Both the position numbers and the translations under genes were made by a program. The notes beneath the pieces were generated by a model. That model worked only from the letters and a program-made list of their open reading frames with translations. It was not told where the DNA came from and did not search any database. A DNA stretch of 64,000 nucleotides from an uncultured PS1 clade bacterium. GTDB taxonomy: Bacteria > Pseudomonadota > Alphaproteobacteria > RS24. Where the stretch lies: the NCBI GenBank assembly GCA_902624095.1, contig CACNWB010000005.1, positions 7,886 through 71,885 on the forward strand, given 5' to 3'. This document shows positions 24,501-54,915 of the stretch, piece by piece (positions within the stretch are counted from its first letter, which is position 1; each line of letters begins with the position of its first letter).

Positions 24501-24509
24501 TTCACCCCC

Positions 24510-25723: not shown

Positions 25724-26028
25724 TACATTGCTCCTACATCGTCGGGAATGTCGAAAAATGTCGGGTGACGGTAGACTTTGGATTGGGACGGTTCATACAT
25801 TGGGCCCTTATCCGATGGGGATGACGCTGTTATTTTTGATGCTTCAACAACCCAAATGCTAACCCCTTCATTGCGGCGGGTATAAACATCGCGCGCATTT
25901 TTAATTGCCATTTCGCTATCCGCTGCATGTAAAGATCCAACATGGCGGTGCGACATACCGTGCTGCCCGCGAATGAATATTTCCCATAGCGGCCATTCAT
26001 TGCGGGCGGTGGGGCTCTCATCACTCAT
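25723..26028 (-). CDS. paaB: 1,2-phenylacetyl-CoA epoxidase subunit B
   Basis: [41 protein letters not shown] is a canonical PaaB. The stop and start overlap by 1 nt with paaC. Confidence 0.9.
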
Positions 26029-32414: not shown

Positions 32415-33650
32415 TTATTTTTTAGCAGCAGTGGATTTTGAGTCCACGAAGGCAGACAGCCCACTATAGAATGCATGGGTCTGATCGTCATATTTTTCTA
32501 CCCAGTCTTCTGGCCATGCGCTGGCTCTAGCAACCACAAGTTCGCGTGCGGGGTCAATGAAAATACTCTGTCCGCGGCTACCATCCGCCTGAAAGGTTCG
32601 ATCAGCAAATGTCCACCAATGCCAACCATATCCCTTTCGCCAGTTCTTATCGACTTTGCCATGGGCCAAATGGGCTTCGGTTGTTGTCGTCGCATCGGCT
32701 AGCCAGTTGTCTGGTAAAAGCGGTTCGCTTTCCCATACGCCATCACGGCTGATGAAGAGACCAAAGCGCGCCCAATCGCCAAGCGTCGCGTTAAAAAATG
32801 CTCCACCTATTTCCCGGCCACCACTGCCAGGCCGATCGATCACCCATGATGCATCGTGCTTCATCCCAAGGGGTTGCCAGATTTTCTGAGACATATAGTC
32901 GGCGGCATCCATTTTGGTTGTGCGAGCAAGTAACTCGAGTAGGATTTGTGTTTCGGCAGTGTTATAATTGAATACTGTACCCGGAGTCGATACGCGCGGA
33001 AACCGAAGGGCAGCTTCGAAAGCTGACTTATTATTCAGTATAATCGCAGTCAACCCCCAGTTGACTGTATCATCTGCCTCACCCTTTAGGGGGTCGTCAA
33101 ATTGAATGCCAGACGACATTTGCAATGCTTGCTTGATAGTAACACCGGCGTAGGCGGTATTTGCCAACTCCGGCAGATAAGCTTCCAGCTTGTCATTGAC
33201 GCTGGAAATTAAGCCGTCTTTTACGGCAAATCCAATTAGGGTTGAGACGAGCGATTTGACAAGTGAATAGGTGGTAAAATGGCTATGCGGACCGCTTCCC
33301 TCGCTATAATTTTCATAAATTACCGCGCCCTTATGAACCACAATAAGCCCGAGCGTTTCCATATCATGCATCATGCTTTCAATGGTGTGCGATTGACCCT
33401 CGAAGGTGTAATTGAACCCAGTCAAGAAATCTGAATCGTTGTCAAATCTGAATGTTTTGTCACCTCGGGCGACAATACGGGTGGGAAACAATTCGCTGAC
33501 ACTTTGAGCAGTCCACCGAACTTTATTTGGGTCGCTCAGCGCATTAACACGTGCGGTAACATGATGCGGGGGCAGGTAGCGCGCCGTCAGCCCAGTGATA
33601 ATCAACGCACCCAAAATTACGGCGAACAAAAGTTGTGCTACAAATTTCAC
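32415..33650 (-). CDS. membrane-anchored serine hydrolase (beta-lactamase fold)
   Basis: It has an N-terminal TM helix and the SxxK motif YSLVKSLVSTLIG. Confidence 0.8.
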   Translation of the reverse strand: MKFVAQLLFAVILGALIITGLTARYLPPHHVTARVNALSDPNKVRWTAQSVSELFPTRIVARGDKTFRFDNDSDFLTGFNYTFEGQSHTIESMMHDMETLGLIVVHKGAVIYENYSEGSGPHSHFTTYSLVKSLVSTLIGFAVKDGLISSVNDKLEAYLPELANTAYAGVTIKQALQMSSGIQFDDPLKGEADDTVNWGLTAIILNNKSAFEAALRFPRVSTPGTVFNYNTAETQILLELLARTTKMDAADYMSQKIWQPLGMKHDASWVIDRPGSGGREIGGAFFNATLGDWARFGLFISRDGVWESEPLLPDNWLADATTTTEAHLAHGKVDKNWRKGYGWHWWTFADRTFQADGSRGQSIFIDPARELVVARASAWPEDWVEKYDDQTHAFYSGLSAFVDSKSTAAKK

Positions 33651-33770
33651 GAAGGCATCCTTGCTGGTTTACGACTTCGAATTAACTATAAACCAATAAA
33701 AATGATAAGCCATGCTTTGAGCAGCTTGGCACCACCGTATGAGCACCCGCCCGACCCGTTCTAAAGGTTC

Positions 33771-35057
33771 TTATCCTGTTTTAAGACCGCCTAAGTCCAC
33801 TTCAATAAACTTACCACCATGCTCAGCTAATTTAACAAGTGTTTGAGCGGGCTTTATGCTGTCATCACCCGCCGCCAAGGCTCGCATTGTAGCAAGAATT
33901 TTTTCAGCACCAATCAAATCACCATAAAACATTGGGCCGCCTGTATTACCGGGCCAGCCGTAGCCGAACGACCAAATCACATCGATATCACTGGCTCTTT
34001 GCGCTTTATTCTCTTCCAAAATGACCAGCGCTTCGTTGATCATGGGGTGTAACAGTCTTGCCAGTATGTCTTCCTGCAACACACCCAAGCTACCCGCTTC
34101 GATGCCCGTAACATCAGCGATAATACCTTCAGTGACTTTGCTGGGGCTACGTTGGCGGTTGTCGTCATAGTCATAATAACCGGCGCCCGTTTTTTGGCCA
34201 CGCCGATTCAATTCACATAATTGGTCGCGGATGGCATTTCCGGTTTTCGCTCCCTTTTTCCAACCAATATCAAGTCCGGCTAGATCGGACATTTGAAATG
34301 GACCCATCTTAAAACCAAAGGCATTGAAGGCATCGTCTACCTCCCATGGCAGCACCCCTTCACTAAGCAGTTTTTGTGCCTCGCTCTGGCGGGCAGCCAA
34401 AATACGATTGCCGACAAAACCAGGACAAACCCCGACGAGGGTTGCCACCTTGCCAATAGCAACTGCCAACGCCATAGAGGTCGCAACGACATCATCAGCG
34501 GTCCTATCAGCACGGACGATTTCCAAAAGCTTCATGACATTGGCAGGCGAGAAGAAATGAAGGCCGATTACATCCTGAGGCCGCGACGTGACGGCAGCTA
34601 TTTCGTCTATATTCAGTGCCGAGGTGTTGGTCGCTAAAATTGCATCTGCTTTACAAATTTTGTCTAGCTCAGAAAAAATTCGCTTTTTTAAGTCCATATC
34701 TTCGAAAACAGCTTCGATAACCAAGTCGCAGTCAACTAATTTTTCTATTTCAAGTGCACCCTCGATGCGCGCCATGCGCTCATCGACTTCATCTTGCGCG
34801 AAGCGGCCGCGGTCAGCAGATCGCTGATAATTATTTCGCACAACGTTGAGCCCACGCGTTAACGCGTCTTCTCGAGCTTCGACAATGGTGACAGGAATGC
34901 TCGCGGTGGCAAAGTTCATTGCTATGCCTCCACCCATTGTTCCGGCTCCAATAATTCCGACCTTTTTAATGGGCCGCAATGCTATTTTGTCGGGCAGTCC
35001 ATTGATAATTCGCGCCGCCTTGGCAGCTTCACTCATGTAGGCAACTACGTCATTCAT
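33771..35057 (-). CDS. 3-hydroxyacyl-CoA dehydrogenase (NAD-binding, no hydratase domain)
   Basis: It has the Rossmann motif VGIIGAGTMGGGIAMNFA. The HFFSPANVMKLLEIV block and the C-terminal dimerisation repeat are also present. Confidence 0.9.
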   Translation of the reverse strand: MNDVVAYMSEAAKAARIINGLPDKIALRPIKKVGIIGAGTMGGGIAMNFATASIPVTIVEAREDALTRGLNVVRNNYQRSADRGRFAQDEVDERMARIEGALEIEKLVDCDLVIEAVFEDMDLKKRIFSELDKICKADAILATNTSALNIDEIAAVTSRPQDVIGLHFFSPANVMKLLEIVRADRTADDVVATSMALAVAIGKVATLVGVCPGFVGNRILAARQSEAQKLLSEGVLPWEVDDAFNAFGFKMGPFQMSDLAGLDIGWKKGAKTGNAIRDQLCELNRRGQKTGAGYYDYDDNRQRSPSKVTEGIIADVTGIEAGSLGVLQEDILARLLHPMINEALVILEENKAQRASDIDVIWSFGYGWPGNTGGPMFYGDLIGAEKILATMRALAAGDDSIKPAQTLVKLAEHGGKFIEVDLGGLKTG

Positions 35058-35293
35058 CCTGTTCCCCCTAAACTAATAAACTAGTTTGAATTCCACGCTT
35101 CATCCCATCAAGTCCTGTATTCGGAATTCTTGAATGGAACGCCCTTAACTTTTCCACCATCAGTGGAGTGTGTGCGAGATCGTGAGGAATGTCACTATGC
35201 CTAGAACTGTTAGACCAATGACCGTGTTATACGCAGGATTGTCATTGACCCTAAAAGGTTTCTATTTGGCGCTTGTTTAGGCGCCCGGGCCTA

Positions 35294-35425
35294 TCAACAC
35301 CCGCCAGATTCTTCCGGCGGTGCGGCGATGGTGATTTCCGCTTCAAATTTTTTACTCGTCAAAAAAGAGGCGACGATCAAGCCGCCAATAAAGAGCAGCG
35401 CTAGTTTAAAATAAAATTTCGGCAT
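35294..35425 (-). CDS. possible 43-aa single-TM protein (below ORF-track cutoff)
   Basis: MPKFYFKLALLFIGGLIVASFLTSKKFEAEITIAAPPEESGGC starts at an ATG. It sits 58 nt downstream of the distal DUF1329 gene on the same strand. The RBS is weak. Confidence 0.3.
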   Translation of the reverse strand: MPKFYFKLALLFIGGLIVASFLTSKKFEAEITIAAPPEESGGC

Positions 35426-35483
35426 GGTTTTCCGCTATTTCAGTCTATGAAACGCTTCAAAGCTCGCATTTCCGTCTTAATTT

Positions 35484-36860
35484 CTAGATTCCGAGGCGGC
35501 GCAGTGACCCTACTGTGAGATATTTATCATATAAAGACGGGTCATTAACCTTCATCGAATATCCGCCCTGCAATTTGGAAGCTTGAGCGAGGCGTGTCAT
35601 GCGCCCAGACTGCGCGTCATATGCGTGGACCCTGGTCCAGGACCAGTATGGGTTCTTACCATTCATGACCTTCTTTCCATTGGCTTCGTAGACAGAATAG
35701 GCGCCATCAAATGACTTGAATACCTGGCCCTTCCGGTCAAAGGTCACCATCGATATTGGTGATTGTGTGCGAGCATCGAACCAGACCCGTTTCTTGCCGA
35801 CTGGTGCGCGCGAAAAACCAGTTGGTTCAGCTTCCACCACGATTGCTTCAGGAACTAATTGAACTTTAGTATCCCAGAACATCGCATTCTCATTGCCACC
35901 ATGTGTCGTATGGCCCCAATTATCGTCTTTACCAGTCCAGCTATCTGCCACAGCGGCTAAGTAAGGCCCACGGTGAACTACCTTGAAGTTGCCCCAAAGT
36001 AAAAAAGGATCTCCGGCTGCCCAGGCGTCTGAAAGATAGAGTGTATTTCCAGCAATCAATGGCTCAAAGCGCTGATTGGTTGGGAACCGGCGCACACGCT
36101 TAAATGCTGGCAGATAGCCGTGCAATTCAGGAAACTTGCGTTGGTCATAGTGCCAAATATTCAAAAAAGAGGTGCCGGCAACATCATTGGGCTTCATGAA
36201 TATTATATTTTGGTAACGCAACTTGTCTTCGTGACCGGGCCAATATGGTTTGGGATCTATTGTCACACGCCCAGTAGCTTGATACTCGATCCAAACAGCC
36301 TCGTATTTATAAGTAATATTACCATCCGCATCTAAATCGGTTTCCTTTACTGGGTAGAGGGATGCATCATGGCGACCCCAGGACAGCGTCGCATTGGCAA
36401 ATACTTCAGTGCCATTTTTTGGATTTGGAAACGGCGTGCCGCCGATCCAAGGTTTTCCATCTTTAGTCGTTACATTGCCATCAGAATCAAAGGTCGCCTT
36501 TCCGCTATTACGGAATGTTGCTTCGAGATAATCATGCGGATTAAGACGATATAAATCAGTTGTCTGGGGCATGACATTTAAAATTCTGCCCAACTCCTTG
36601 ACCTGAAGATATTGAATTGGATCGAGTAGATCTTTAACGAAATCAACGTTGTTTGCGTCAATGGTTCCGGTGTCGGATATTTTCCCACCAGTATAAGCAT
36701 CCAGAGACAAGAGTTCCTCAGGATAGGCTCTTGAATGGTCACCATCCTCAGCCAAAACCGACCACAATGGCGAAAGCACGCCCATAGAAGCGCCGGCAAC
36801 GCCGAGGGTTTTGATGAACTGCCGCCTTGAAAAGTCACTTGTGTATTTTTTTATACGCAT
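35484..36860 (-). CDS. DUF1329 family periplasmic protein, paralog 1, with twin-arginine signal
   Basis: The Tat motif is SRRQFIKTLGVAGA. Conserved DUF1329 blocks such as GYLPAFKRVRRFPTNQRFEPL and YLSDAWAAGDP are present. By eye it is about 50% identical to the 39863-41248 product. Confidence 0.85.
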   Translation of the reverse strand: MRIKKYTSDFSRRQFIKTLGVAGASMGVLSPLWSVLAEDGDHSRAYPEELLSLDAYTGGKISDTGTIDANNVDFVKDLLDPIQYLQVKELGRILNVMPQTTDLYRLNPHDYLEATFRNSGKATFDSDGNVTTKDGKPWIGGTPFPNPKNGTEVFANATLSWGRHDASLYPVKETDLDADGNITYKYEAVWIEYQATGRVTIDPKPYWPGHEDKLRYQNIIFMKPNDVAGTSFLNIWHYDQRKFPELHGYLPAFKRVRRFPTNQRFEPLIAGNTLYLSDAWAAGDPFLLWGNFKVVHRGPYLAAVADSWTGKDDNWGHTTHGGNENAMFWDTKVQLVPEAIVVEAEPTGFSRAPVGKKRVWFDARTQSPISMVTFDRKGQVFKSFDGAYSVYEANGKKVMNGKNPYWSWTRVHAYDAQSGRMTRLAQASKLQGGYSMKVNDPSLYDKYLTVGSLRRLGI

Positions 36861-36895
36861 GGCTTATTGTTTAGCGGGTTTGCCACAGGGTCAAC

Positions 36896-36924
36896 AAAAA
36901 AATGGCCCGCCGGAGGCGGGCCAT
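36896..36924 (-). terminator. rho-independent terminator between DUF1302 and DUF1329 paralog 1
   Basis: The minus strand reads ATGGCCCGCC-TCC-GGCGGGCCAT followed by TTTTTTTG. That is a perfect 10-bp GC-rich stem with a 3-nt loop. It lies 20 nt after the DUF1302 stop and 35 nt before the next ATG. Confidence 0.8.
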
Positions 36925-36944
36925 TCATTCTTTGGTGACTTCCT

Positions 36945-38882
36945 TTAGAAGTAATAGGAAGCTCTCAAAAATACCTCATCCATAGTTTCAATGGTGCCCA
37001 TGATGTCATCATTGCCACCGTCGCTATCCAAGAAATTTGCATAGAGATCTAGTTGGAAATCATCGCGAGGACGCCACCGGACACCCGGCTGCACCAGCAA
37101 ACCACCCTCCAGATCGTACAACACGGACAGATCAGCCCGCCAGATCAGGTTAGGGAATGGTTGTTGAAATGCAAAGGCGACTGCGTTGAATTGATCATCG
37201 CCCGTTGGAACGCCGCCAGTTTCATATGGAGACCCATTTCCCGATAGATGACGACCAAACATATCGCTTTCGGACTTATGCATCCACTGGGCGACCATGT
37301 AAGTAGCCGGAAACTTTGCTGAGAACTTGTGATATTTCTCAAGCGAAACCACGCTCGTAAACTCATCTTCCTCAATCTTGGTCTGAGATAGGCTTGGAGC
37401 TGTGAACAAGCGATCTTGTGTAAAGGTCGCCTCAACGCCCAAAATAAGTTGGTCCGTGAAGCTGTCTGGAGCACCGGTGAAAACATATTTCGCGCTCGCG
37501 CCCACGATAACTTCCTCGTCATAATCGCGGTGCAGATAGCCTCGCAATGGACCAAAGCCTACAGCCGGTAGGCTGAAGAAGAGGTCTAACTCACCTTTAG
37601 CCAGCAGCTCAGCTGTAGTTGTTCCAGGATTCTGAGCATTCAATTGAGCTGCAGTTGCTGTTGGTGAAAACGCTCCCGCAGCCGCGGCAGCTACTGCAAA
37701 AGGTGCCTCTGTAACTGAAGTATCCAACGTGGTAACTGGATTGAAGCGAAGCCACGACGCACCCCAGAACCACTCGTCCGCACTTGCTGTGCCACGAGGA
37801 TCCGGCGCAAATGCCAGCCCCGGACGACGCCCAAATTGAGGAGCGCCGTTGCCATTACCATTGTCTGGATCGGTTGTGCTTGGATAAAGTTCGTTTCGTG
37901 CCCAGCGATAAGTCCCATCAGGCGTTGTCCTCGAAACTGCCATGAACGATAAGTCTATATCATTCCATTGACCTGACAACCGGAAGCCGACGTCGATATC
38001 GTCCTCATCTTGTTCATAGCCTGGCTCTTCATATACTGTAAATGCTTCGGCAACTACGCTGTAGGGTGTTCCAGGCCTAGGAAGAATGGTCGGCCTAAAC
38101 TGCTGAGCGTAACCTTCGAGCTCCCAGTCGTTTGCAAAACGGTAACTTCCTCTGATTGCCAAGGATGGGATACGACTATCCGAATATTCCTCGGCTGCAA
38201 CGCCAAGGAAGCTATGACGGCGCAAGTCAAGGCCTTGCACAACATCAAATACCCGGAAGAATAATGCCTCGCCCCACGCGATCTGTTGATTACCAACGCG
38301 AAGCCAGAGCGGACCTTTGTTGTAATCCAGATATAGAGCGGGAATATCAAGCATATAATCTTGCCCGTTATTCTCGAGGGCCGACCCGTAGCCATCATCT
38401 AAAGGCGTGTTTCGGAACACTCTCGACGGCAATGCGAAGAGCGGTGCCTCAGGATGGTCAACTCCGTTTGCGGTAGCAGCCTTACCAAAATAATCATAAT
38501 GCCTCAGAAAATCATCTTGGGGGTTTTCAGCATAACCGCGTAACTTCGTGTAAAGGGTAACATTTTCGCTTAACCGACCTTGAACGTCGATTTCCAATCT
38601 GGTCGCGAATTGGTTCCAGTCATTTTCTTCCGCTTTAACATTCGCGCGGGTTGTTTGGTGAGCAGGCAAGTTAAGCCCTAAAACGCTTAGGTTTCCAATA
38701 TGACTGGTGTTCTGCCGGCCGTTCCAAGGCGAGCCCCATGAAGTGTGCATGTTAGCGTCACCAGTATTGGCGGCTATTTCTTGGCGGATCATACCAGTAA
38801 CGCTGAAACTCGGCTCAGCGTAGGCCACCCCCCCAGTTGCCGCGACACCAAGTGCCGCCAGAGTTAGTGTTAGCTTTTTCAT
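36945..38882 (-). CDS. DUF1302 family outer-membrane beta-barrel protein
   Basis: It has the Sec signal MKKLTLTLAALGVAATGGVAYA and is 645 aa. Alternating amphipathic strands are visible, and the terminal LRASYYF is a typical OMP C-terminal aromatic signature. Confidence 0.8.
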   Translation of the reverse strand: MKKLTLTLAALGVAATGGVAYAEPSFSVTGMIRQEIAANTGDANMHTSWGSPWNGRQNTSHIGNLSVLGLNLPAHQTTRANVKAEENDWNQFATRLEIDVQGRLSENVTLYTKLRGYAENPQDDFLRHYDYFGKAATANGVDHPEAPLFALPSRVFRNTPLDDGYGSALENNGQDYMLDIPALYLDYNKGPLWLRVGNQQIAWGEALFFRVFDVVQGLDLRRHSFLGVAAEEYSDSRIPSLAIRGSYRFANDWELEGYAQQFRPTILPRPGTPYSVVAEAFTVYEEPGYEQDEDDIDVGFRLSGQWNDIDLSFMAVSRTTPDGTYRWARNELYPSTTDPDNGNGNGAPQFGRRPGLAFAPDPRGTASADEWFWGASWLRFNPVTTLDTSVTEAPFAVAAAAAGAFSPTATAAQLNAQNPGTTTAELLAKGELDLFFSLPAVGFGPLRGYLHRDYDEEVIVGASAKYVFTGAPDSFTDQLILGVEATFTQDRLFTAPSLSQTKIEEDEFTSVVSLEKYHKFSAKFPATYMVAQWMHKSESDMFGRHLSGNGSPYETGGVPTGDDQFNAVAFAFQQPFPNLIWRADLSVLYDLEGGLLVQPGVRWRPRDDFQLDLYANFLDSDGGNDDIMGTIETMDEVFLRASYYF

Positions 38883-38910
38883 TTTAGTATCCTCCCAAAT
38901 ACTTTTTGAA

Positions 38911-39858
38911 TCAGAAATTTACGATTTGTCCATATTGACCAGCAGCTAAAAACCTTCTGCCATCGCCATCTGGGCTTATGCCCGATACACCTTGATACCA
39001 ACGTCTCTCAGTATCTCGATTAGAAACGGCCTGCCAACTGCGGCCACCATTATTGCTTTTCAAAACTGCACGAACGCCTACAACGGCAAAAGCCTTGCCC
39101 GACGAACTTACGCCTAAGAGATTCGCTTTTGTGCCCGATTTGGCTGCCTGCCAGGACACACCATCATCGATAGACGAGATAATGTATCCAGCTTGTCCTA
39201 CACCAACCAGGCGACCATTTGCACCCTGGTGCAGAGCAAAAACGGAAGAGTCATTCGTGTTCTGGACAGACCAGGTCTTGCCACCATTGCGGCTAAGCAA
39301 AACCATACCAAATTCGGCGGCAATTAATAGGGTGCCGGCCTCTGTTTGCATAACATCGTACAAATGCGGCTCAAAGCCGTCCTCGACAATTGCGTCCCAA
39401 TCCACAGCGATCTTCTTAAAACTTTTGCTTCCAGCTGACCGCTTTACGATTGTACCAAAAGCGCCTACTGCCATTTGACTGCCATTGGATAGTGTTGCAA
39501 TGTCTAAAAGGCGCTCTTCGGTACCCGAGTCCAGCGGCTCCCAATTCTCACCTTCAGCAGAAAACATAAAGGCTTTTCCAGCTTGGCCAACTATGACCGG
39601 TTGACCTCTATCAATGGCCATGCCCAAGGCCGCAAAGTCTCCCGGAGAGGCAATTCTTTCCCAGTCCGCGCCACCATTATCAGAACGCAAAACGAGGCCG
39701 TGTCCACCGATCGCCCAGAGAGAAACCCCAGATCGGTCGATCGAATAAATTGCATCATGAGGCAATCCAGCCCTCACTGCCTGGAAGTTGTCAGCCGCAA
39801 AAGCTGAGCCGACAACCCCCAGAAAAGTAAGAGTTAAAGCTGTCTTAAGGAGCCGCAT
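38911..39858 (-). CDS. Ycf48-like BNR/beta-propeller protein
   Basis: It has a Sec signal and four BNR-type motifs: SDNGGADW, SRNGGKTW, SIDDGVSW and SNNGGRSW. Confidence 0.8.
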   Translation of the reverse strand: MRLLKTALTLTFLGVVGSAFAADNFQAVRAGLPHDAIYSIDRSGVSLWAIGGHGLVLRSDNGGADWERIASPGDFAALGMAIDRGQPVIVGQAGKAFMFSAEGENWEPLDSGTEERLLDIATLSNGSQMAVGAFGTIVKRSAGSKSFKKIAVDWDAIVEDGFEPHLYDVMQTEAGTLLIAAEFGMVLLSRNGGKTWSVQNTNDSSVFALHQGANGRLVGVGQAGYIISSIDDGVSWQAAKSGTKANLLGVSSSGKAFAVVGVRAVLKSNNGGRSWQAVSNRDTERRWYQGVSGISPDGDGRRFLAAGQYGQIVNF

Positions 39859-39862
39859 CTAA

Positions 39863-41248
39863 TTAGGCACCCAAGCGGCGAATAGCTGACTTAGTTAGAT
39901 AGCGATCATAGTCAGCAGTGTCATCATAGTGTGTCGGATAACCGCCCGCCATCTCCTTAACAAGCTCCGGCAGCGAAATCCGACCAGTCTGAACGTCGTG
40001 GATGATGACGAAGTTCCAAGTCCAGAGCGGACCGCCTCTGTAAGCTTTGGTTACGGTGCCGTCCTTATCGATGGACATACCATTACCGTGCTCGAAGTTT
40101 TTGTACACCTTGCCCTGACGGTCGTAGCTAACACTGGTGTATGCCACCATCGTCCGAGCATCGAGGTAGACGCGACGCTTGCTTATCGGCGCCCTTGGAT
40201 AGCCGGTAGGCTCGCAATCGATAACAACCACGTCCGGGATAACCTCATAGTCAGAGCGGAAGAAGCTGGTGCCCTGAGGCCCACCCACACGCTCACGCTT
40301 CCAGTTCGGGTCTTTAGAGTTAAAGTTACCGCCACCAGCTGGACCGACCATCGGACCACGGTGGACAATCTTAAAGTTACCCCATGTCAACCAGGGATCC
40401 CCCGCACCCCAAGCATCCGACAGGTACCAAGTCGGACCAGGTAGGAGCGGCTCAAAACGCTGATTAGTCGGGAAGCGACGGACCCGTTTAAACGCAGGAA
40501 GATAGCCCTCCAATTTCGGGTACTGCCGTTGATCATATGGCCAGGTGGACAAGAAGGCAGTGCCTTTAACGTCCTGCGGAGCGTTGAACCAAGCAGTTTG
40601 ATAACGAACCGTATCCTGCTGGCCTTTAAAATAAACGCCTTCAGGGTCGCTAACCCGACCAGTGGCTTGCTGCTCAATCCAAGCAAAGTCATAAGAATAT
40701 GCAACCGAACCATCTGGGTTCAGGTCATCCTCTTGAATCGCATAGAAAGTGTTATCGTAGCGACCCCAAGACATTGTGATATTTGCAAATGCCTCTGCCC
40801 CGTTCTTAGCGTCAGGGAATGGGTTCCCGCCGATCCACGCGGATCCATCATCAGTTACCACATTACCATCAGCGTTAAACTTGGCGCGACCAGAATTTTT
40901 GACAGATGCACCGAGATAGTCTGGCGGCGACAGATAGCTAGGATCCAAGGTTGTCGCGTGTGTGTCTATCTCGCGGCCCATTTCTTTGACCTGCATGAAC
41001 GCGACCTCGTCCATGTAGTCTTTGAGGAAATCAACATTGTTGGCATTGATTACGTCGCCATTATTGATTTTGCCCTTAGTAAGGCCCTCAAAAGATGAAA
41101 TCTCATCCGGATACACTCCTTCGAGCGTGCGGCCCATGGCAATGGTCGACCACAAAGGTGCCAACACGCCAGTGGCCAGCGCACCGGTCGCCATCTGTTT
41201 CATGAAGAAACGGCGAGAATAATTAGAATCAAATTTTTTGATGTGCAT
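39863..41248 (-). CDS. DUF1329 family periplasmic protein, paralog 2, with twin-arginine signal
   Basis: The Tat motif is SRRFFMKQMATGA. It shows the same conserved blocks as paralog 1. Its stop is 4 nt before the BNR gene start. Confidence 0.85.
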   Translation of the reverse strand: MHIKKFDSNYSRRFFMKQMATGALATGVLAPLWSTIAMGRTLEGVYPDEISSFEGLTKGKINNGDVINANNVDFLKDYMDEVAFMQVKEMGREIDTHATTLDPSYLSPPDYLGASVKNSGRAKFNADGNVVTDDGSAWIGGNPFPDAKNGAEAFANITMSWGRYDNTFYAIQEDDLNPDGSVAYSYDFAWIEQQATGRVSDPEGVYFKGQQDTVRYQTAWFNAPQDVKGTAFLSTWPYDQRQYPKLEGYLPAFKRVRRFPTNQRFEPLLPGPTWYLSDAWGAGDPWLTWGNFKIVHRGPMVGPAGGGNFNSKDPNWKRERVGGPQGTSFFRSDYEVIPDVVVIDCEPTGYPRAPISKRRVYLDARTMVAYTSVSYDRQGKVYKNFEHGNGMSIDKDGTVTKAYRGGPLWTWNFVIIHDVQTGRISLPELVKEMAGGYPTHYDDTADYDRYLTKSAIRRLGA

Positions 41249-41585
41249 TTTTCCCTCCCAAGAAAAATTTTTGGTTATCTAAATTTAAACAGTTGGCGGA
41301 GATTAAAAGTCTTCAGAACGAGTATTGTAACTCAACCTTAAAAACCAAAATTCCACTTAACCTGCACCCCCCTATTTGAAGAACCGAATGGATCTCTAAT
41401 ACTGCTAGAATACTTCATAACTGATTTTCGCCATTTGCAAGCGTTTTTTATGCCCGAAAGCTAGTTTTTATAAAAACAAGCATCTTTTGCAGACATGTTG
41501 CATTTTAGATACATTTGGCACGTTCTATGACATTATAGCCTTTGACTAATCGTTGCCTGATGATCAGTCAAAGAGCCACAAGCTC

Positions 41586-43967
41586 TTATATCTTTCTCCA
41601 GTCCTCATTCAACCAAGCAATATCGGCATTCACAAATTTTGGTTTAAGCAGATATACGAGAAGCGGCACGCCTATCAAGGCAACCACCATATTGATCAGC
41701 ATGACCAACACCAATAGAAGACCCATGTCAGCGAGGAACTTCAAACCAGAAAGATAATACCAAGGCAGAATGCTTATCAGAACGATTGTTGCCGTAAAGA
41801 AAATAGCTTTACCGGTAGTCATGACTGCGGTCATTATGGCGGTGCCATAATCATCCCCAGAGTGCTCCTCACAAATGCGGCTAAGCAGGTAGATGCCGTA
41901 GTCAATGCCCACGCCAATGCCGATCGCTGCGATAGGGAGGGTGTTAACGTCGAGCCCAATACCCATTAAAACCATGGTCGAGCCAAGCATCATATTTGAT
42001 AGGTTTACAGGTATGAGAAGCAATATCCCTGCTAAAATAGAGCCATAAGCCAACGAGCAGGTGAGCAGAATAACGGCGTTAAGCGCCGCCAAAATATACC
42101 ATTGATAGAGGTCCACAGTATCGTTCACAGATTGCTGCAAAGCGATCGCGCCCGTTGCCAGGCGGATTTTAAACTCAGGAAAATCCTGCCCTATATCCGC
42201 AATTATTTCATTTGCAGCCTCGAGAGCTTGGTCAACAGTGTCCTGTTTATTATCTTTGTACCACAGAGACACAGTTCCGTTTTTGAGTTCAAAATCTGAT
42301 ACATGGCTATACGCCTTGGAGCTCGCACCTAACAGAAGAGCCCCGGCAGCGGCATTGACAGCGTCATCAGTGTAATCTAACGGAGACCATTTAGGGTTGC
42401 CGCCTTGGTAAAGCCGGCTCGCCTCTGGCAAGTAGTCAGCAAAGGATAGCGTCGCCGTAGGCGGAAACTCCGATTCCTCTAGGCGGCGCTGTATTTCATT
42501 CATGACTTTTACTGTCTCGGCACGCTTCACAGTCCTGACTGTTTCATCCTTGCCTTCAAAAACAAGCTCTAGGGTCATCAAGCCAGGGAAGTTCTGGTTG
42601 ATGGCCCTGACAGCGGTGTTGTAGTCAGAATCCTCCCACAGGAGATTACTGCCCTCAACAGGATTTCCTACCCGGATTTGTGGCATCAGATAAAGACAAA
42701 CCGCAATGATTACAGCAAAAGTAGTGGCACTAAAACGAGCGCCCCGACCAAAGCTCAGTTTTGAAATTTTTTCCAAAAGATTAACAACCGCTCTATGGAA
42801 CTTCGCGCCCTCTTCTTTTCCAAGCAAAGTTTTGACATTTTTGGGCGCCGGAAACCACGACAGTAAAATAGGCGACAGGAACAAATTGGCTGGCACCAAG
42901 ATGAGCGCCCAAAACCCGCAGAAAAGTGCAAAGCGTTCCATTACCGGAATGGGAGCGATGGCGATAAGGAATAGACCTGTTGCATCCGTAACGATGCCAA
43001 GCGCACCCGGCGCCATCAATACCCTGAGCGCTAATTCAGCCGACTTGTGTCTATCTCCGGTCTCCTCATAAATCTCATAATAGCGTTCGATAAATTGCAC
43101 GCAGTGACTGAAAGAGCGCGCAACCAGCAAGAGCGGCACAACCATAATGAGCGGTTCAATTGGATCGCCGATCCAGCCAACAAACCCAAATCCCCAAATC
43201 GCAGCGACTATACTCACAAAGAGCGGTGTGATCACTCCTGGAATATTGCGCATGTAAAGGATAAGAGCTATGAACAACGCTGCCAGCGTAACGCCAAAGA
43301 TGGAGAGCATCTCGACCTGATAGGCATATACCCACCCAGTTAAGATGGGAGCTCCGGCAACATAAACTTCATGATTGTCATCGCGCTCTCGTTCCACCAT
43401 TTCCTGAATATATTGAGATGTCTTACCGTAATCCAAGAGGCGCTCGATAAATGTCGCGGTTACCACTGTCGCCGTTTCGTCCGGAGATATAAAAAAGGTC
43501 TGAACGTAGGGAGCCTTATTTACACGGTTTTTAAACTCGCGCATTTCTTCTTCGGTTTGTGGCGCACGGTCACCCATGAGCGGACGGGTATCAATGCCAA
43601 ACGGCGTCGCTTCAGAATAACGAGCCTTCTCTGTGGCGATTGATAGTATTTGGTCGTGGTCGACCGCCGGAGCCAGGTCAATATCCCGGCTCATGCGCCA
43701 AATTTTTTCTAATGTTTCGGGATTATAGATATCGCCATTCTTGACCTTCACCATCATAACCACTGTAAGAGGGTTCCCAAAGTTGGGATGGTCTTTATAT
43801 GTTTCTACAAAAGGATGGTTCTTAGGAAACAGATCGGAAAAAATTGTTCGAATGTCGACGCGTTGAATTCCAACGGCGAAGAACGCTGTGATCAACATTA
43901 GCATGACGAAGGACGCCACACTGTTCTTCATTGTTGCTTGCGCAACTCTTTTCTGAAATTCTTCCAT
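41586..43967 (-). CDS. RND superfamily transporter (MMPL/HpnN-like, COG1033 type)
   Basis: It is 793 aa with two 6-TM bundles, each preceded by a large soluble loop. No adjacent membrane-fusion protein or TolC-like gene is present. Confidence 0.85.
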   Translation of the reverse strand: MEEFQKRVAQATMKNSVASFVMLMLITAFFAVGIQRVDIRTIFSDLFPKNHPFVETYKDHPNFGNPLTVVMMVKVKNGDIYNPETLEKIWRMSRDIDLAPAVDHDQILSIATEKARYSEATPFGIDTRPLMGDRAPQTEEEMREFKNRVNKAPYVQTFFISPDETATVVTATFIERLLDYGKTSQYIQEMVERERDDNHEVYVAGAPILTGWVYAYQVEMLSIFGVTLAALFIALILYMRNIPGVITPLFVSIVAAIWGFGFVGWIGDPIEPLIMVVPLLLVARSFSHCVQFIERYYEIYEETGDRHKSAELALRVLMAPGALGIVTDATGLFLIAIAPIPVMERFALFCGFWALILVPANLFLSPILLSWFPAPKNVKTLLGKEEGAKFHRAVVNLLEKISKLSFGRGARFSATTFAVIIAVCLYLMPQIRVGNPVEGSNLLWEDSDYNTAVRAINQNFPGLMTLELVFEGKDETVRTVKRAETVKVMNEIQRRLEESEFPPTATLSFADYLPEASRLYQGGNPKWSPLDYTDDAVNAAAGALLLGASSKAYSHVSDFELKNGTVSLWYKDNKQDTVDQALEAANEIIADIGQDFPEFKIRLATGAIALQQSVNDTVDLYQWYILAALNAVILLTCSLAYGSILAGILLLIPVNLSNMMLGSTMVLMGIGLDVNTLPIAAIGIGVGIDYGIYLLSRICEEHSGDDYGTAIMTAVMTTGKAIFFTATIVLISILPWYYLSGLKFLADMGLLLVLVMLINMVVALIGVPLLVYLLKPKFVNADIAWLNEDWRKI

Positions 43968-44025
43968 CCGTTCCTCCCAAAAACGAAAATGATGATCTAT
44001 AAGCCGGACCCAAGAAGAGCTTGGC

Positions 44026-44058
44026 TGACAACTGAGCCACAGAGCGGGTCAGTTATCA
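44026..44058. promoter_or_regulatory. inverted repeat upstream of the RND gene (candidate operator or 5' UTR hairpin)
   Basis: TGACAACTGA - 13 nt - TCAGTTATCA, with 9/10 complementary arms. It lies 60-90 nt upstream of the RND ATG, in the divergent region facing the lipoprotein and tandem-MarR genes. Confidence 0.3.
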
Positions 44059-44345
44059 ATTTCTTTTTTTGAATTTGGGAAAAAAATATCTGCCGATTGA
44101 CACTATTTTCCTTGACGTTCAAAATCTTTAATGAAGGTGCATATTCTGAAATAAAAAAAACGACTTACGCTGTGAGATAGTTGAGAACTTTAAAAGGAAA
44201 TATCCCCATAAAAAAAATTATTATGCCAAAAGCTCGACGAATTCAACGGAGAAACCTCCAACAATCAATATAAAATTTCCTAAACAAAGTAGGCCCAAGA
44301 TCCTTAACATGCAAATTACCAGACAAAATCGAACAGGAGTTATCG

Positions 44346-44675
44346 ATGCGTTTCATTTTATTATTGCCTGTAATTACTGTTTTGGGGTGTAGCCCGGCCA
44401 CGAAGCTGGACACAGCGTCAGCTAAAAAAAACGAAACAAAATGCGCCGAGCTGGCCGCTTCATATGAGATGGCCCAAAAAAGAAAAGCTGAAATAGAAAA
44501 AAAGACAGAAGAAAAACAAGGTATCGAGATTGAAGAAGCGATCTTCTCGTGGCCATCCATGCTGGCCACAAGAATAGGCGAAATTTCGGATGCAAACGTG
44601 GCCTCAAAAAAAATGAGGGAGTTAAAAAAAGAAATGGCCAAAATAAATTGCAAAGGTGTTGAAAAACTCGACTAG
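44346..44675 (+). CDS. small lipoprotein, hypothetical
   Basis: It has a lipobox (ITVLGCS) followed by a charged, coiled-coil-like sequence. No family was recognised. Confidence 0.5.
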   Translation: MRFILLLPVITVLGCSPATKLDTASAKKNETKCAELAASYEMAQKRKAEIEKKTEEKQGIEIEEAIFSWPSMLATRIGEISDANVASKKMRELKKEMAKINCKGVEKLD

Positions 44676-44727
44676 CATAACGAATGTGCGTATTTGAAAG
44701 GCTGGCAAATTGTGATACGCGTGGTCC

Positions 44728-45888
44728 ATGGTTCTAGAACACACTGAAAAGACACCTGAGGTGATGATTGAACATTGCCCGAGGGACTTGGCCGCTGAAA
44801 AGCTCTTGGATTTGTTCTTTAGAATTCACTACGTAGTCGGCATGAAGGTGGAGGACACACTTCGCACCAATGATGTTCTGAACAGGCATCAGGTCGCCGT
44901 GTTGTGGACTATTCGCTCGGAAGGCATTGAGGGCCTGTCCATGCGCCGCAAATATATCGAGAGCACTATGACGGGTTGGTATGACATCAGCAGCAGCGCC
45001 ATTTCCAAAGCCATCCGTGCCATAGCCAAAAGTCCATTAGAACTCATAACAATTGAAGAACACCCTAAATCGGCACGTGAAAAGCTGATAACGCTGACGC
45101 CACGGGGGCGAAAATTCGTTCATGCCATGGTTAAAAATGGCACGGCCATGTGCCAATGGTTTTTGGACAATATGTCCAAATACGATGCTGAACGTGATAT
45201 CTGCCTGTATATTTATTCCAAAACAAATGCGATTTTTAATCGCATGATTGACCGGGAACGCATCGAACTTGGGGAGAAACACGAAGACCCGAAAAAGTCG
45301 AACCAACTTCTCCAGCATCCCCTCGCTGCCAACTTTCTTGAAAAACATTATAATTACGCAGAAATCCCGCGCGTGCCACGCGAATATTCGGCGCTAATGC
45401 AGCTCGATATATTTTTCCCCATTCACTATAAAGCAGGTAATCGGGTGGAAACGGCTTTACGCAAAGGCGCTTCGCTGAACCGTCAGCAAGTGATCATTCT
45501 ATGGGCCATTGCCGCCCAAGGTGTTGACGGCGAAAAAATGGAGCGCAAGCTCATAGAGCAAACCCTCAAAGATTGGCTGGAGATTACCAGCAGCTCTGTC
45601 TCAAAAGCCATACGATCGCTAACGGATCCGCCGCTCAATATTCTAACCATTACCGAAAATCCGGCCTCGGGCCGCGAAAAAATCGTTTGTCTGACCACAG
45701 AGGGTAAAAAGGTGGTTCAGGACATGCTGAGCAATGGCAAAGATTACCTGCAAAATCTCATCTCTGAATTAAGCGATGAAGAAATCAACATGGTTATTTC
45801 CATATTCGCCAGAACACACGAAATATTCAAACAATACCCCGGCCCTTTTCGCGAAGGGCAACCGCTTAAAGAAGCTACGGCCTGGTGA
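44728..45888 (+). CDS. tandem (duplicated) MarR-type winged-helix transcriptional regulator, 386 aa
   Basis: Residues 27-138 and 226-337 align ungapped at 55/112 identities. Shared blocks include LDxFFxIHY, LNRxQVxxLW, SSSxSKAIR, REKxxxLTxxGxKxV and NG. Each half looks like a complete MarR wHTH module. Confidence 0.8.
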   Translation: MVLEHTEKTPEVMIEHCPRDLAAEKLLDLFFRIHYVVGMKVEDTLRTNDVLNRHQVAVLWTIRSEGIEGLSMRRKYIESTMTGWYDISSSAISKAIRAIAKSPLELITIEEHPKSAREKLITLTPRGRKFVHAMVKNGTAMCQWFLDNMSKYDAERDICLYIYSKTNAIFNRMIDRERIELGEKHEDPKKSNQLLQHPLAANFLEKHYNYAEIPRVPREYSALMQLDIFFPIHYKAGNRVETALRKGASLNRQQVIILWAIAAQGVDGEKMERKLIEQTLKDWLEITSSSVSKAIRSLTDPPLNILTITENPASGREKIVCLTTEGKKVVQDMLSNGKDYLQNLISELSDEEINMVISIFARTHEIFKQYPGPFREGQPLKEATAW

Positions 45889-45941
45889 AAGGTCGCAGGT
45901 TTATTCCAGCCACCAGATGATGGCAGGCAATAATCGGGGAA

Positions 45942-46256
45942 TCAAAAGCCCTCTTCGGGTGCAACCGTCACTCTGATATTGTCAATTTCCGGCGTGATTT
46001 TTAGCTGACAGGCCAGGCGGCTTTCGGGCTTTCTCTCGACGAGGAAGTCAAGCATCTCTTCTTCTGCACTCTCCGGTTCCGGCAATTTCGATAGAAACGC
46101 TTCATCAACAAACACATGACATGTGGCGCATGAACATGAACCACTACAAGTTGCGTCCACCAGATCAGCACCTTGCAACGGACTCATGAGCGTATCGCCC
46201 TCCTGCCCGTCAACTACATGTTCTGCTCCGTCGCGATCTGTTACATGAATTTTCAT
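45942..46256 (-). CDS. 2Fe-2S ferredoxin (adrenodoxin/putidaredoxin type)
   Basis: The cluster motif is CSGSCSCATCHV ... LACQ. The protein is 104 aa. Confidence 0.9.
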   Translation of the reverse strand: MKIHVTDRDGAEHVVDGQEGDTLMSPLQGADLVDATCSGSCSCATCHVFVDEAFLSKLPEPESAEEEMLDFLVERKPESRLACQLKITPEIDNIRVTVAPEEGF

Positions 46257-46453
46257 TTATGTCTCCAACTGGCAAAGGGCACCAGCACGAAGCTGGCACT
46301 GAAACGAGATGTCGTTATTTTACAGAATTTGGCAGAAATCGCAGGCCGGTTTGCCGGCACCGGAACTGTTTGCCCATCAATGGCGATACCCCTAGACAGC
46401 CATTCTTCAATTCCGTGTCGCTCAATTCCATCTCCTCAAATTAACGGCGAAGG

Positions 46454-48070
46454 CTAAGCCACTTCGAAGGCGTTCAAACCGTCAAATGCTGCTTCGCACT
46501 GCTCGCGATACAACGGAAACCCGCCCAAAAAAAAGACCGTCTGACGAGGCTTGCCCGGAATATTGTCACCCATGTAATAATTATTAGATTTGGGGAACAA
46601 GGTCATATTGCCAATCTGATTGGTCAGATCGACCCAGCCCTGCTCGTTCTCTTCCGTCGCCTCCAATATTTTCTTTCCGGAGTCGTCCATATGGTTTAAC
46701 GCGTCAAAAATCAGATCGCATTGGAACTCGGCGAGAAGAATGGGATTGTAGAACTGGCTGTGCGGGCCGTTGATCCAGAAAAAGTTCGGAAAGCCTCTGG
46801 TCATCAGACCGAGATAGCTTGTCAGACCTTCTTTCCAGCGGCTCTTCAACGCTTGCGCGTCACGACCGCGAATATCTATGCGATCCATAGCACCAGTCAT
46901 CACATCAAAGCCGGTGGCGAAAATGATAATATCAAGCTCAATCTCTTCGTCGCCGACAATGATGCCGGTTTCGGTGAAACGCTTGATCGGCTTTTCATTC
47001 AAATCAACCAGATCGACATTGTCGCGGTTAAACTGCTCAAGGAAGTTCGTCTCCGGTGACAGGCGCCGCGTCAAAATGTGATAGTCTGGCGACAGCTTCT
47101 CGGCAATTTTCGGGTCGTTCACACGTTCGCGAATTTTTTCCCGGGCAAATTCCGCCATGGTAGCATTGCTGTCTTCATCCATCAGCGTATCAGTGAACGC
47201 ATAATAGGGCGACAGGCCGCCCGACTTCCAACGGTTTTCATATTCCGCCCGACGGTCTTCCTCGCTCAACTCCAAAGCTGACTTAGAAGGCAGCGGCGAC
47301 AGGTCAGAATGAAGCAAGGTGAACCCGCCAAAACTCTCTTTTTCCAGTGCCCGCAACTCGTCATATTTGCTTTTGATTTTTTCAGCCTGCCCATTTTCGA
47401 GTTCATGGTTCTGCAGCGGAATGACGTATGACGGCGTGCGCTGGAAAACCAGAAGCTCGCCGCATTTTTCGGCAATCTCGGAAATGACCTGAATGCCGCT
47501 CGAACCGGTGCCGACGATACCGACACGCTTGCCGCCAAACTGAATTTCTTCCTTAGGCCATCGGCTGGTCATATATTGCTCGCCCTTAAATCCGTCCAAA
47601 CCCTCAAAGTCGGGGTCAACGGGGGCCGAAATCAGCCCGGTCGCCATGAAGCAAAATTTCGCTGAGATTTGATCTCCGCGATTGGTTTTGACTTCCCAAC
47701 GCTGCGTTTCCTCATTGAAAATGGCCGATTCCACGCGCGTTTCAAATTGCATATAGTCGCGCAAATTATAGCGTTCGGCGACGTGTTTGGCGTAGTTCAG
47801 AATTTCAGCTTGTCCCGCATAACGTTCTGTCCACTCCCATTCTTGCTGCAAGGCTTCATCGAAAGAATAGGAGTATTCCAAACATTCAATATCAACACGC
47901 GCGCCTGGATAGCGGTTCCAGTACCACGTGCCGCCAACATCCGTGCCTGCTTCAAAGCATTTCACGCTTCGGTTGTCTTTGTTGGCGCGGTAAACGGCAT
48001 ACATGCCCGCAAAACCAGCTCCAACAACGACAACATCCAAATGTTCAATTGAATTATCGCTCATATCCAA
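46454..48070 (-). CDS. type I Baeyer-Villiger monooxygenase (flavin, NADPH-dependent)
   Basis: It has VVVGAGFAGMY (FAD GxGxxG), GGTWYWNRYPGARVD (the BVMO long motif) and VGIVGTGSSGIQ (NADPH). The fingerprint FKGEQYMTSRWP is present with Met where His is canonical. Confidence 0.9.
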   Translation of the reverse strand: MDMSDNSIEHLDVVVVGAGFAGMYAVYRANKDNRSVKCFEAGTDVGGTWYWNRYPGARVDIECLEYSYSFDEALQQEWEWTERYAGQAEILNYAKHVAERYNLRDYMQFETRVESAIFNEETQRWEVKTNRGDQISAKFCFMATGLISAPVDPDFEGLDGFKGEQYMTSRWPKEEIQFGGKRVGIVGTGSSGIQVISEIAEKCGELLVFQRTPSYVIPLQNHELENGQAEKIKSKYDELRALEKESFGGFTLLHSDLSPLPSKSALELSEEDRRAEYENRWKSGGLSPYYAFTDTLMDEDSNATMAEFAREKIRERVNDPKIAEKLSPDYHILTRRLSPETNFLEQFNRDNVDLVDLNEKPIKRFTETGIIVGDEEIELDIIIFATGFDVMTGAMDRIDIRGRDAQALKSRWKEGLTSYLGLMTRGFPNFFWINGPHSQFYNPILLAEFQCDLIFDALNHMDDSGKKILEATEENEQGWVDLTNQIGNMTLFPKSNNYYMGDNIPGKPRQTVFFLGGFPLYREQCEAAFDGLNAFEVA

Positions 48071-54672: not shown

Positions 54673-54915
54673 CCGTTGGACGCTTAGTAAAATCTTCGCA
54701 AAAGTTCATTTCCAGCACATATTTTCAGCTCGCGCTGGAGAGGATATGGAGCGTCGGATGGATTGACGACCCTAAATATCGAATGTTTTTTTTGAAGTCT
54801 CGGAGCCAAAACTTAGTATATTTTTGTATTATTTCTCCAGTCGATTTTTGAACAAAATATACTGCAACAGCCGCTCGCTATCATTTAACTAAATTATCCT
54901 CTATTATCATTCTCT

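Follow-up and report, generated by a model that had tools for sequence, protein, structure and literature searches.

A five-gene cluster of the AmeABCD type in a PS1 clade bacterium, and the question of which way it transports

What passes through a set of proteins that between them touch every compartment of the bacterial envelope, and in which direction does it go? The question is raised by five genes in a stretch of 64,000 nucleotides (nt), called here the window, from an uncultured PS1 clade alphaproteobacterium (assembly GCA_902624095.1, contig CACNWB010000005.1, positions 7,886 to 71,885). They encode an RND protein, two DUF1329 proteins, a Ycf48-like propeller and a DUF1302 barrel. A preliminary description of the window took them for an uncharacterised machine, which they are not, for the module has already been described, named, deleted, modelled with AlphaFold-Multimer and placed in aromatic-catabolism regulons. 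The cluster is a member of that described system, the AmeABCD type, in a five-gene form with two clades of carrier, and it very probably serves as an envelope-spanning relay for very hydrophobic, uncharged molecules. The direction of the relay is far less certain. That it runs outward is an even bet, and outward transport is somewhat more likely than uptake.

The list of open reading frames (ORFs) bears out five co-oriented genes on the minus strand. Along that strand come the RND protein (41586-43967; 793 amino acids, aa), the AmeD-type component in the inner membrane; a DUF1329 paralog of clade A (39863-41248; 461 aa); a BNR/Asp-box beta-propeller like Ycf48 (38911-39858; 315 aa), the component of the AmeC/COG4447 type; a DUF1302 outer-membrane beta-barrel (36945-38882; 645 aa), the AmeA-type component; and a DUF1329 paralog of clade B, associated with the barrel (35484-36860; 458 aa). 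The gaps of 4 nt between the clade A gene and the propeller gene and of 28 nt between the propeller and barrel genes agree with these coordinates, and a search with Pfam and NCBIfam models upholds all four family assignments. The same five gene calls, with the same downstream neighbours, occur in a public assembly that is 99% identical (GCA_902625105.1), and the best database relatives of the locus are metagenome-assembled genomes (MAGs) labelled Parvibaculales, PS1 clade or Rhodobiaceae. An exact-sequence look-up of the window's barrel returned no record, and the 99%-identical relative was used in its place.

The RND protein matches Pfam MMPL (5.8e-24), and its hydropathy is consistent with 12 transmembrane (TM) segments and two periplasmic domains of ~185 and ~200 aa. 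Its top match in NCBIfam is the HAE3 model TIGR00921, at 143.6 bits, under the curated cutoff of 351.9; a score below the cutoff fits the "distinct lineage within HAE3" to which AmeD was assigned (PMC6394551). The only PDB sequences that it matches are those of MmpL3, MmpL4 and Patched, and there only the membrane domains. The cassette thus includes an RND protein of the kind expected of an AmeABCD-type system, affiliated with HAE3, about 790 aa long and with a pattern of 12 TM segments and two periplasmic loops. Across 45 homologues the residues R284, S287 and H288 (TM4), D328 (TM5), D689 and Y690 (TM10) and K720 (TM11) are invariant and, judged from the alignment, would form a proton-relay network.

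The propeller is recognized by Pfam PSII_BNR (9.3e-11) and by the NCBIfam model for Ycf48 (1.1e-10), and it matches HCF136 and Ycf48 in the PDB. It carries four Asp boxes, S-x-[DN]-x-G-x-x-W, at residues 59, 189, 229 and 268, and begins with a Sec-type signal peptide (...GSAFA/ADN), so that a periplasmic propeller of the COG4447/Ycf48 kind does lie within the cassette. So does a DUF1302 outer-membrane protein, which matches PF06980 over its full length (9.4e-24), begins with a Sec-type signal peptide and ends in ...ASYYF. The count of four BNR motifs and the SYYF terminus had both been given correctly before. An AlphaFold2 model of the barrel (predicted local distance difference test score, pLDDT, 72.8; predicted template modelling score, pTM, 0.74) comprises ~18 long strands, with five helices inserted at residues 368-437. 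Foldseek places this model with MOMP, OccAB3, AlgE and OmpF-type porins, at a probability of 1.0 and target-normalised TM-scores of 0.5-0.6; porins of 16 to 18 strands are among the matches, in agreement with PMC13499233.

The DUF1329 proteins are present in two copies. Both match PF07044 (9.2e-52 for the clade A protein, 8.1e-60 for the clade B protein) and, in addition, LolA_like. In an AlphaFold2 model of the clade B protein (pLDDT 75, pTM 0.82) an N-terminal helical part precedes a beta-rich domain of the LolA superfamily. Its top Foldseek matches are 3bk5, LolA3 (9tp6, target TM-score 0.80) and the DUF1329 structure 4z48, followed by LolA, LolB and RseB. Each protein carries a twin-arginine motif, SRRFFMK in clade A and SRRQFIK in clade B, and neither has a lipobox cysteine. 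Both show the pattern expected for export by twin-arginine translocation (Tat), S/T-R-R-x-F-L-K and then a hydrophobic region, and the clade B protein scores 24.7 bits with the NCBIfam model TAT_signal_seq (TIGR01409), over its cutoff of 16.7. The motif is found in 92 of 93 DUF1329 homologues. In both classes the near-universal SRRxFL signal stands in an unusually conserved n- and h-region (MHIRKYDxDYSRRxFLxK..GVLxPLW). Export by Tat, after folding, is noteworthy in a carrier with the LolA fold.

Taken together, 12 hydrophobic segments in the RND protein, predicted Tat signals on both DUF1329 proteins, a Sec-exported propeller and an 18-strand barrel ending in phenylalanine fit the list of compartments drawn up earlier. 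It had also been said that no membrane-fusion protein or TolC-type channel belongs to the cluster, and scans of ~50 of the window's ORFs revealed no HlyD-type adaptor, no TolC and no channel of the FadL type, within the cluster or among the other ORFs scanned.

How much is known of such clusters? Price et al. (bioRxiv 10.1101/072470) recognized DUF1302, DUF1329, BNR (COG4447) and RND (COG1033) proteins as a conserved co-fitness cluster and proposed that it exports some constituent of the cell wall; of multiple carriers they mention only "paralogs for DUF1329". Puentes-Cala and Harder (PMC6394551) gave the name AmeABCD, a "tetrapartite RND transporter" of a distinct HAE3 lineage, to the version in Castellaniella defragrans 65Phen. 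Deletion of ameABCD impaired growth on unfunctionalised but not on oxygenated monoterpenes, with rescue by acetate at up to 5 mM limonene. The mutant also tolerated less limonene and, in the presence of carbonyl cyanide m-chlorophenylhydrazone (CCCP), accumulated slightly more Nile Red, and the authors concluded that the system is an exporter that confers tolerance to monoterpenes (PMC6394551). According to Thompson et al. (bioRxiv 10.1101/2020.07.04.188060), Pseudomonas putida requires the genes of the module specifically on Tween 20 and butyl stearate. In the Foldy paper (PMC10866462), complexes of barrel with DUF1329 and of DUF1329 with BNR and RND proteins were predicted, and transport of the substrate was proposed. 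The ECLIPSE study (PMC13499233) predicted an 18-strand barrel that pairs with DUF1329 at an interface score (ipTM) of 0.84, and stated that no experimental structure exists. Finally, Suvorova and Gelfand (PMC6449761) assigned the four genes, by prediction, to regulons for phenol and aromatics, in one instance alongside a flavin monooxygenase and an esterase.

The arrangement seen in the window is a common one. A DUF1302 profile search of species-representative genomes gave 79 loci, of which 54 had enough upstream sequence to be informative. The order RND-DUF1329-BNR-DUF1302, in the orientation of the window, recurs in 39 of these, spread over Alpha-, Beta- and Gammaproteobacteria; three have RND-BNR-DUF1302, and in the remaining 12 the barrel gene is alone or accompanied only by DUF1329. 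Because the same order recurs in 39 of 54 loci, the clustering goes far beyond chance. Carriers of the module include Parvibaculum, Zoogloeaceae and Azoarcus, Halieaceae, Luminiphilus and HTCC2080, Porticoccaceae and Salinisphaera, and solitary DUF1302 genes were seen in two MAGs of Verrucomicrobia. Several genomes have more than one copy. On the megaplasmid of Methylibium petroleiphilum PM1 the five-gene order of the window occurs twice, as an inverted duplicate (L080, plasmid RPME01, 530132-555889), a few kilobases (kb) downstream of two rubredoxin genes and a LuxR-type regulator, and in one of the copies DUF1302 is split by an ISMpe1 transposase.

A second DUF1329 gene directly follows the barrel gene in 20 of 68 loci and lies 5-8 kb downstream in 17 more. 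Are the two carriers of a module merely duplicates? A neighbour-joining tree of 93 DUF1329 proteins says not. Genes in the RND/propeller position (clade A) fall apart from genes that come after the barrel, whether adjacent to it or distal (clade B/C), with one exception among 92 sequences, at a rearranged locus. In a non-redundant subset of 55 sequences the split has a bootstrap value of 100/100, and four Methylibium genes, which were left out of the building of the tree, are assigned to the clades that their positions predict. Mean identity is 0.63 within clade A, 0.66 within clade B/C and 0.53 across the clades; the two paralogs of the window are 47% identical to each other. Strict type-II columns, those specific to a clade, number only 2, and the clades are therefore distinct without being strongly diverged. 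The distinction between the A and B carriers was not found in the literature searchable here, and two old, position-specific clades are possibly new. By analogy they suggest a relay of two carriers, as in LolA and LolB.

In the gammaproteobacterial loci the 5-8 kb between the barrel gene and the distal clade B/C gene hold recurring genes of their own (L045:11828-16615, L009:13223-16425, L013:14400-16586, L074:13749-17194). There is a MotA/ExbB-like gene, in three of the loci surveyed, a gene with a VWA domain and, directly upstream of DUF1329, one for a protein of 690-775 aa, in which Pfam finds TPR repeats in two of the four cases scanned and nothing in the others. The set resembles Bat/ExbB genes and is absent from the window.

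In the window a scan for terminators finds a hairpin on the minus strand between the barrel gene and the clade B gene (36900-36926), with a GC-rich stem of 12 base pairs and a run of T, followed by a promoter-like site (36894-36866). It is a candidate for a terminator, an attenuator or an element of mRNA stability. A strong hairpin, often with a T-rich tract after it, occupies this position in most of the 21 related loci that were checked (recorded in L001-L003, L020-L033 and L022/L023/L067). Its sequence and length vary by lineage, from the ~27 nt of the window to ~100 nt and -55 to -99 kcal/mol in Parvibaculum. The hairpin may govern how much carrier is made relative to barrel, or it may be the mark of a separate transcription unit. 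Given this hairpin and the split between the clades, the core operon appears to be RND-DUF1329A-BNR-DUF1302, and DUF1329B a semi-independent unit.

A second terminator-like hairpin on the minus strand (35369-35386), ~100 nt past the stop codon of the clade B gene, is probably the end of the transporter unit. The cluster had earlier been drawn as far as 35294, which is 190 nt past that stop codon (35484) and takes in an ORF of 43 aa (35294-35425). This ORF overlaps the hairpin and is probably no gene. The AT-rich gap between the RND gene and the clade A gene (41249-41585) is 337 nt long and without an ORF; in the closest relatives, L001 and L003, the coordinates of tblastn matches put it at ~140-160 nt. 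It could hold an internal promoter. A check of this gap and of the 425 nt that follow the clade B gene for small ORFs gave nothing convincing, and Rfam finds no structured RNA from 33000 to 47000 at E<=0.1. A search for a shared palindromic operator, covering the divergent region between the RND gene and a MarR-type regulator upstream of it, the region upstream of a dehydrogenase/reductase gene farther on and the internal gaps, yielded no more than isolated, imperfect palindromes and 12-mers that differ at one position, which neither support nor oppose co-regulation.

I propose that the parts work together as follows. The RND protein, in the inner membrane, would use the proton gradient, a coupling for which its conserved intramembrane residues speak, and pick very hydrophobic, uncharged molecules from the periplasmic leaflet. 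It would pass them to the clade A DUF1329 protein, for which the LolA fold and Tat export are predicted, with the Ycf48-like propeller as a periplasmic scaffold; such a hand-over agrees with the heterotrimer of DUF1329, BNR and RND proteins that has been modelled with AlphaFold. The cargo would then go to the clade B DUF1329 protein, docked on the 18-strand DUF1302 barrel as in the published multimer, and the barrel would release it to the outer membrane or to the medium. The whole would resemble LolCDE-LolA-LolB, with an RND pump in place of the ABC transporter. It would act as the valve, within the envelope, of a pathway for a hydrophobic substrate that leads from a P450 through a short-chain dehydrogenase/reductase (SDR), a Baeyer-Villiger monooxygenase (BVMO) and an esterase to beta-oxidation, and would keep the load of substrate, ketone or ester in the membrane tolerable.

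Genes that would suit such a pathway stand on either side of the cluster, as had been noted before and as Pfam confirms. On the minus strand, upstream of the transporter, lie an SDR (49405-50226), a P450 (48098-49375), a type I BVMO (46454-48070) and a 2Fe-2S ferredoxin (45942-46256). The closest PDB matches of the BVMO are steroid monooxygenase and phenylacetone monooxygenase (~1e-150), and the best match of the P450 is 9lw0. Between these genes and the RND gene, and divergent from the latter, is a gene on the plus strand for a protein of 386 aa with two winged-helix domains of the MarR type (44728-45888; Pfam HTH_27 in two stretches), a candidate regulator. An ORF of 136 aa beside it (44243-44653) has no Pfam match and no homologue in the related loci; within that interval a gene of 109 aa is called in the 99%-identical assembly.

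On the other side, also on the minus strand, are a 3-hydroxyacyl-CoA dehydrogenase (33771-35057) and a serine hydrolase of the beta-lactamase family (32415-33650), both kept in the 99%-identical assembly and not conserved in more distant loci. The hydrolase has a hydrophobic anchor or signal segment at its N-terminus (MKFVAQLLFAVILGALIITGL...) and an SxxK motif at residue 129. On these features it may be a membrane-anchored esterase that faces the periplasm, beside a transporter whose relatives in P. putida serve the use of esters. A second protein of the beta-lactamase family is encoded at 16862-18091.

How did the oxidative cassette come to lie beside the transporter? In the window the SDR-P450-BVMO-ferredoxin genes and the double-MarR gene are upstream of the module, and in OM60 gammaproteobacteria they are directly downstream of it (L031, which is HTCC2080, at 11938-17765, and L035, L039 and L048). 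The proteins of the cassette are 55-71% identical between the two groups, the regulator 54-55%. The corresponding figures for the transport proteins are 65% for the RND protein, 52% for DUF1329A, 42% for the barrel and 33% for the propeller. That the identity of the cassette exceeds that of the transport genes next to it suggests that the cassette was transferred laterally. In a related alphaproteobacterial locus (L003) a pair of acyl-CoA dehydrogenase genes stands just upstream of the RND gene, and in the window the pair is ~13 kb off, an apparent gain of ~12 kb between the two. The displaced pair makes the cassette look like an insertion in the lineage of the window. Two independent juxtapositions of cassette and module argue for a functional coupling.

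More broadly, a BVMO or P450 homologue lies within 10 kb of 15 of the 47 full-module loci, in only ~5-6 independent lineages. A raw Pfam tally of 121 neighbouring proteins is led by SDRs, CoA ligases, P450s, acyl-CoA dehydrogenases and BVMOs, with oxidoreductase and beta-oxidation families among the leaders, and FadL-type channels are not among its commonest families. The tally holds 103 different families, so the context of the module is variable. The link to the catabolism of hydrophobic compounds, claimed earlier from the window alone, is nonetheless real, as judged by the neighbourhoods of related loci.

Two other regions of the window may be mentioned here. Downstream of the transporter, at a distance of 8-15 kb, is a phenylacetate catabolic cluster (19808-27032) with a PaaX-like regulator, a PaaK-type ligase, a TetR regulator, a PaaE-type reductase, PaaD and subunits of the PaaC/PaaA family. 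Upstream, at 53488-58819, are genes for the metabolism of lipids or hydrophobic compounds: DUF3089, a protein of the fatty-acid hydroxylase family and two acyl-CoA dehydrogenases, 83% and 65% identical to the pair that abuts the RND gene in L003.

Which way, then, does the relay run? So far as is known, every characterised bacterial RND transporter, the lipid movers HpnN, MmpL3 and BstA included, moves its cargo away from the inner membrane, and this counts for the outward direction. The outward reading rests on that behaviour, on the tolerance and Nile Red data for Ame and on the predicted membership of the genes in regulons for aromatics and solvent stress (PMC6449761).

A good deal weighs against it. 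The evidence for export by Ame is weak: the difference in Nile Red is slight and appears only with CCCP, and efflux followed in real time was identical in mutant and wild type (PMC6394551). The poor growth on limonene as the sole carbon source, rescued by acetate, fits a defect in uptake equally well. The defects in P. putida are strong, are specific to Tween 20 and butyl stearate and do not extend to free fatty acids, and they arose in pooled cultures (bioRxiv 10.1101/2020.07.04.188060). An ester-specific defect under pooled conditions points to a step of acquisition that is private to the cell. Phenanthrene is poorly soluble and only weakly toxic. Deletion of a DUF1329 gene in Delftia is reported to impair growth on it, as cited in PMC13101534. 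And with no FadL-type channel in the window or among the commonest neighbour families, a route for uptake would otherwise be missing.

These observations suit a conduit that runs the other way, in the manner of NPC2 and NPC1, a tentative reading that I hold to be somewhat the less probable of the two. Cargo would pass from the barrel to the clade B carrier and from there to the clade A carrier, and would at last reach the inner membrane, where the propeller and the RND protein would unload it; the influx of protons would drive either this unloading or the recycling of carriers. Besides the ester-specific defects, the reported phenanthrene defect and the absence of FadL nearby, the reading can draw on the failure of the Ame mutant only on the most hydrophobic, unfunctionalised monoterpenes, with growth when acetate is given. 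It can draw also on the recurrence of the module near catabolic genes, with the P450/BVMO cassette placed beside it in two arrangements, one in an alphaproteobacterium and one in OM60 gammaproteobacteria, and on the plasmid module of Methylibium a few kb from rubredoxin genes. Multiple copies of the module in several genomes, the weak similarity of the RND protein to Patched and the transport of substrate proposed by the Foldy authors (PMC10866462) lean the same way. On the other side, hydrophobic molecules partition into the inner membrane without energy, and no bacterial RND importer is known. The tolerance and Nile Red data of Ame likewise point outward (PMC6394551).

The stronger claim, that this is the first bacterial import to depend on an RND protein, in which a barrel and two specialised, Tat-exported carriers of the LolA fold, one near the barrel and one near the pump, feed very insoluble growth substrates to it as NPC2 feeds NPC1, for unloading into the inner membrane, is unlikely by a shade more still. 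The substrates could be alkanes, ketones, esters, terpenes, polycyclic aromatic hydrocarbons or steroids. The preliminary description had argued for uptake rather than efflux. That is a legitimate reading of the published phenotypes, it contradicts the sole direct experimental interpretation, and the computation presented here is neutral between the two.

A third view, improbable in my judgement, is that the module exports an endogenous lipid, or another constituent of the outer membrane, to that membrane from the inner one, and that its effects on hydrophobic substrates are indirect, through surface hydrophobicity, permeability or the formation of vesicles. HpnN, MmpL3 and BstA do move endogenous lipids, a point in its favor. 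The pleiotropic phenotypes of Shewanella and P. stutzeri mutants, for which export of a cell-wall component was proposed (Price et al., bioRxiv 10.1101/072470), also speak for it, as do the presence of DUF1302 and DUF1329 proteins in the outer-membrane vesicles and nanopods of Delftia and the near universality of DUF1302 among strains of P. aeruginosa. It is harder to reconcile with the subfamily of the window, whose catabolic surroundings vary, which occurs on a catabolic megaplasmid too and which often has multiple copies, and with the lack of lipid-synthesis genes next to the module in the window. Expression of Ame, moreover, is induced by monoterpenes and undetectable on acetate (PMC6394551).

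That DUF1302 and DUF1329 are the missing esterase for fatty esters, an alternative raised by Thompson et al. (bioRxiv 10.1101/2020.07.04.188060) on the strength of an ester-specific defect and of genes near fatty-acid genes in Pseudomonas, is scarcely credible and is rejected here on fold, since the barrel is modelled as porin-like and the carrier as a LolA fold, and neither model contains a hydrolase fold. Against it stand also the separate gene for a serine hydrolase beside the cluster of the window and the later Foldy analysis with AlphaFold, which favored a transport role (PMC10866462).

The preferred reading therefore remains an outward relay, and its interest goes beyond the window. The module is widespread in Proteobacteria that degrade hydrocarbons, terpenes, steroids and esters and in abundant marine clades (PS1/Parvibaculales and OM60). 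The window reveals no new kind of system. It offers a good model of a widespread type of transporter, and a convenient one, with a contiguous five-gene form, two separable carriers and a compact P450-SDR-BVMO pathway alongside. From it one could learn how very insoluble molecules get across the periplasm, and if LolA-like carriers can serve an RND protein in place of an AcrA/TolC duct. If import proves true, it would be a general, modular route by which marine and soil Proteobacteria take up hydrophobic carbon sources.

How does the cluster compare with systems already known? It is closest to AmeABCD, to which it is likened by the composition of its families: AmeA is a DUF1302 protein of 605 aa, AmeB a DUF1329 protein of 451 aa, AmeC a COG4447 protein of 316 aa and AmeD an HAE3 RND protein of 787 aa. 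Both form one cassette, without a membrane-fusion protein or TolC, in a catabolic island for hydrophobic compounds. The window differs in having a second DUF1329 gene, of clade B, after the barrel gene and behind a hairpin. As judged from consecutive accessions, the order of the Ame genes is DUF1302-DUF1329-BNR-RND or the reverse, and that of the window is RND-DUF1329-BNR-DUF1302. The context of Ame is one of anaerobic monoterpene genes, that of the window one of an aerobic P450 and BVMO.

The co-fitness modules of Shewanella amazonensis (Sama_1588-1591), Kangiella and Pseudomonas consist of the same four families and share mutant phenotypes. In Pseudomonas the module is divided between two loci (PP_0765/0766 and PP_2018/2019 in P. 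putida), while the genes of the window are contiguous. The co-fitness studies name a single DUF1329 protein beside the barrel, and the window has two specialised paralogs.

HpnN, MmpL3 and BstA(BC) share with the RND protein of the window 12 TM segments, two periplasmic domains and the D-Y motif in TM10, and they handle lipid or hydrophobic cargo without AcrA/TolC partners. They are not encoded with DUF1302, DUF1329 or BNR partners, however, and the protein of the window scores far below the NCBIfam cutoffs, and its matches to PDB sequences cover only TM segments. The classical tripartite HAE1 pumps (AcrAB-TolC, TtgGHI, SrpABC) are likewise RND-based and are often encoded or induced with pathways for solvents and hydrocarbons. 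In contrast, neither an adaptor of the HlyD family nor a duct of the TolC family turned up in the cluster or among the ~50 ORFs of the window that were scanned, and the RND protein of the cluster is ~790 aa long, not ~1050. NPC1/NPC2 and Patched also join a membrane protein of the RND superfamily to a soluble lipid carrier, and the RND protein of the window matches Patched weakly. They are very distant and use a carrier of another fold, and so are useful only as a precedent for inward delivery.

A further parallel is the Lol pathway. Like LolCDE-LolA-LolB, the cluster of the window would combine an energised extractor in the inner membrane with two paralogous proteins of the LolA fold, of which one would work near the inner membrane and the other near the outer, and DUF1329 structurally matches LolA, LolB and LolA3. 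In the window an RND protein takes the place of the ABC transporter as the motor. The DUF1329 proteins have twice the size, bear Tat signals and are not lipoproteins, a barrel is the partner in the outer membrane, and small hydrophobic molecules, not lipoproteins, are presumably the cargo.

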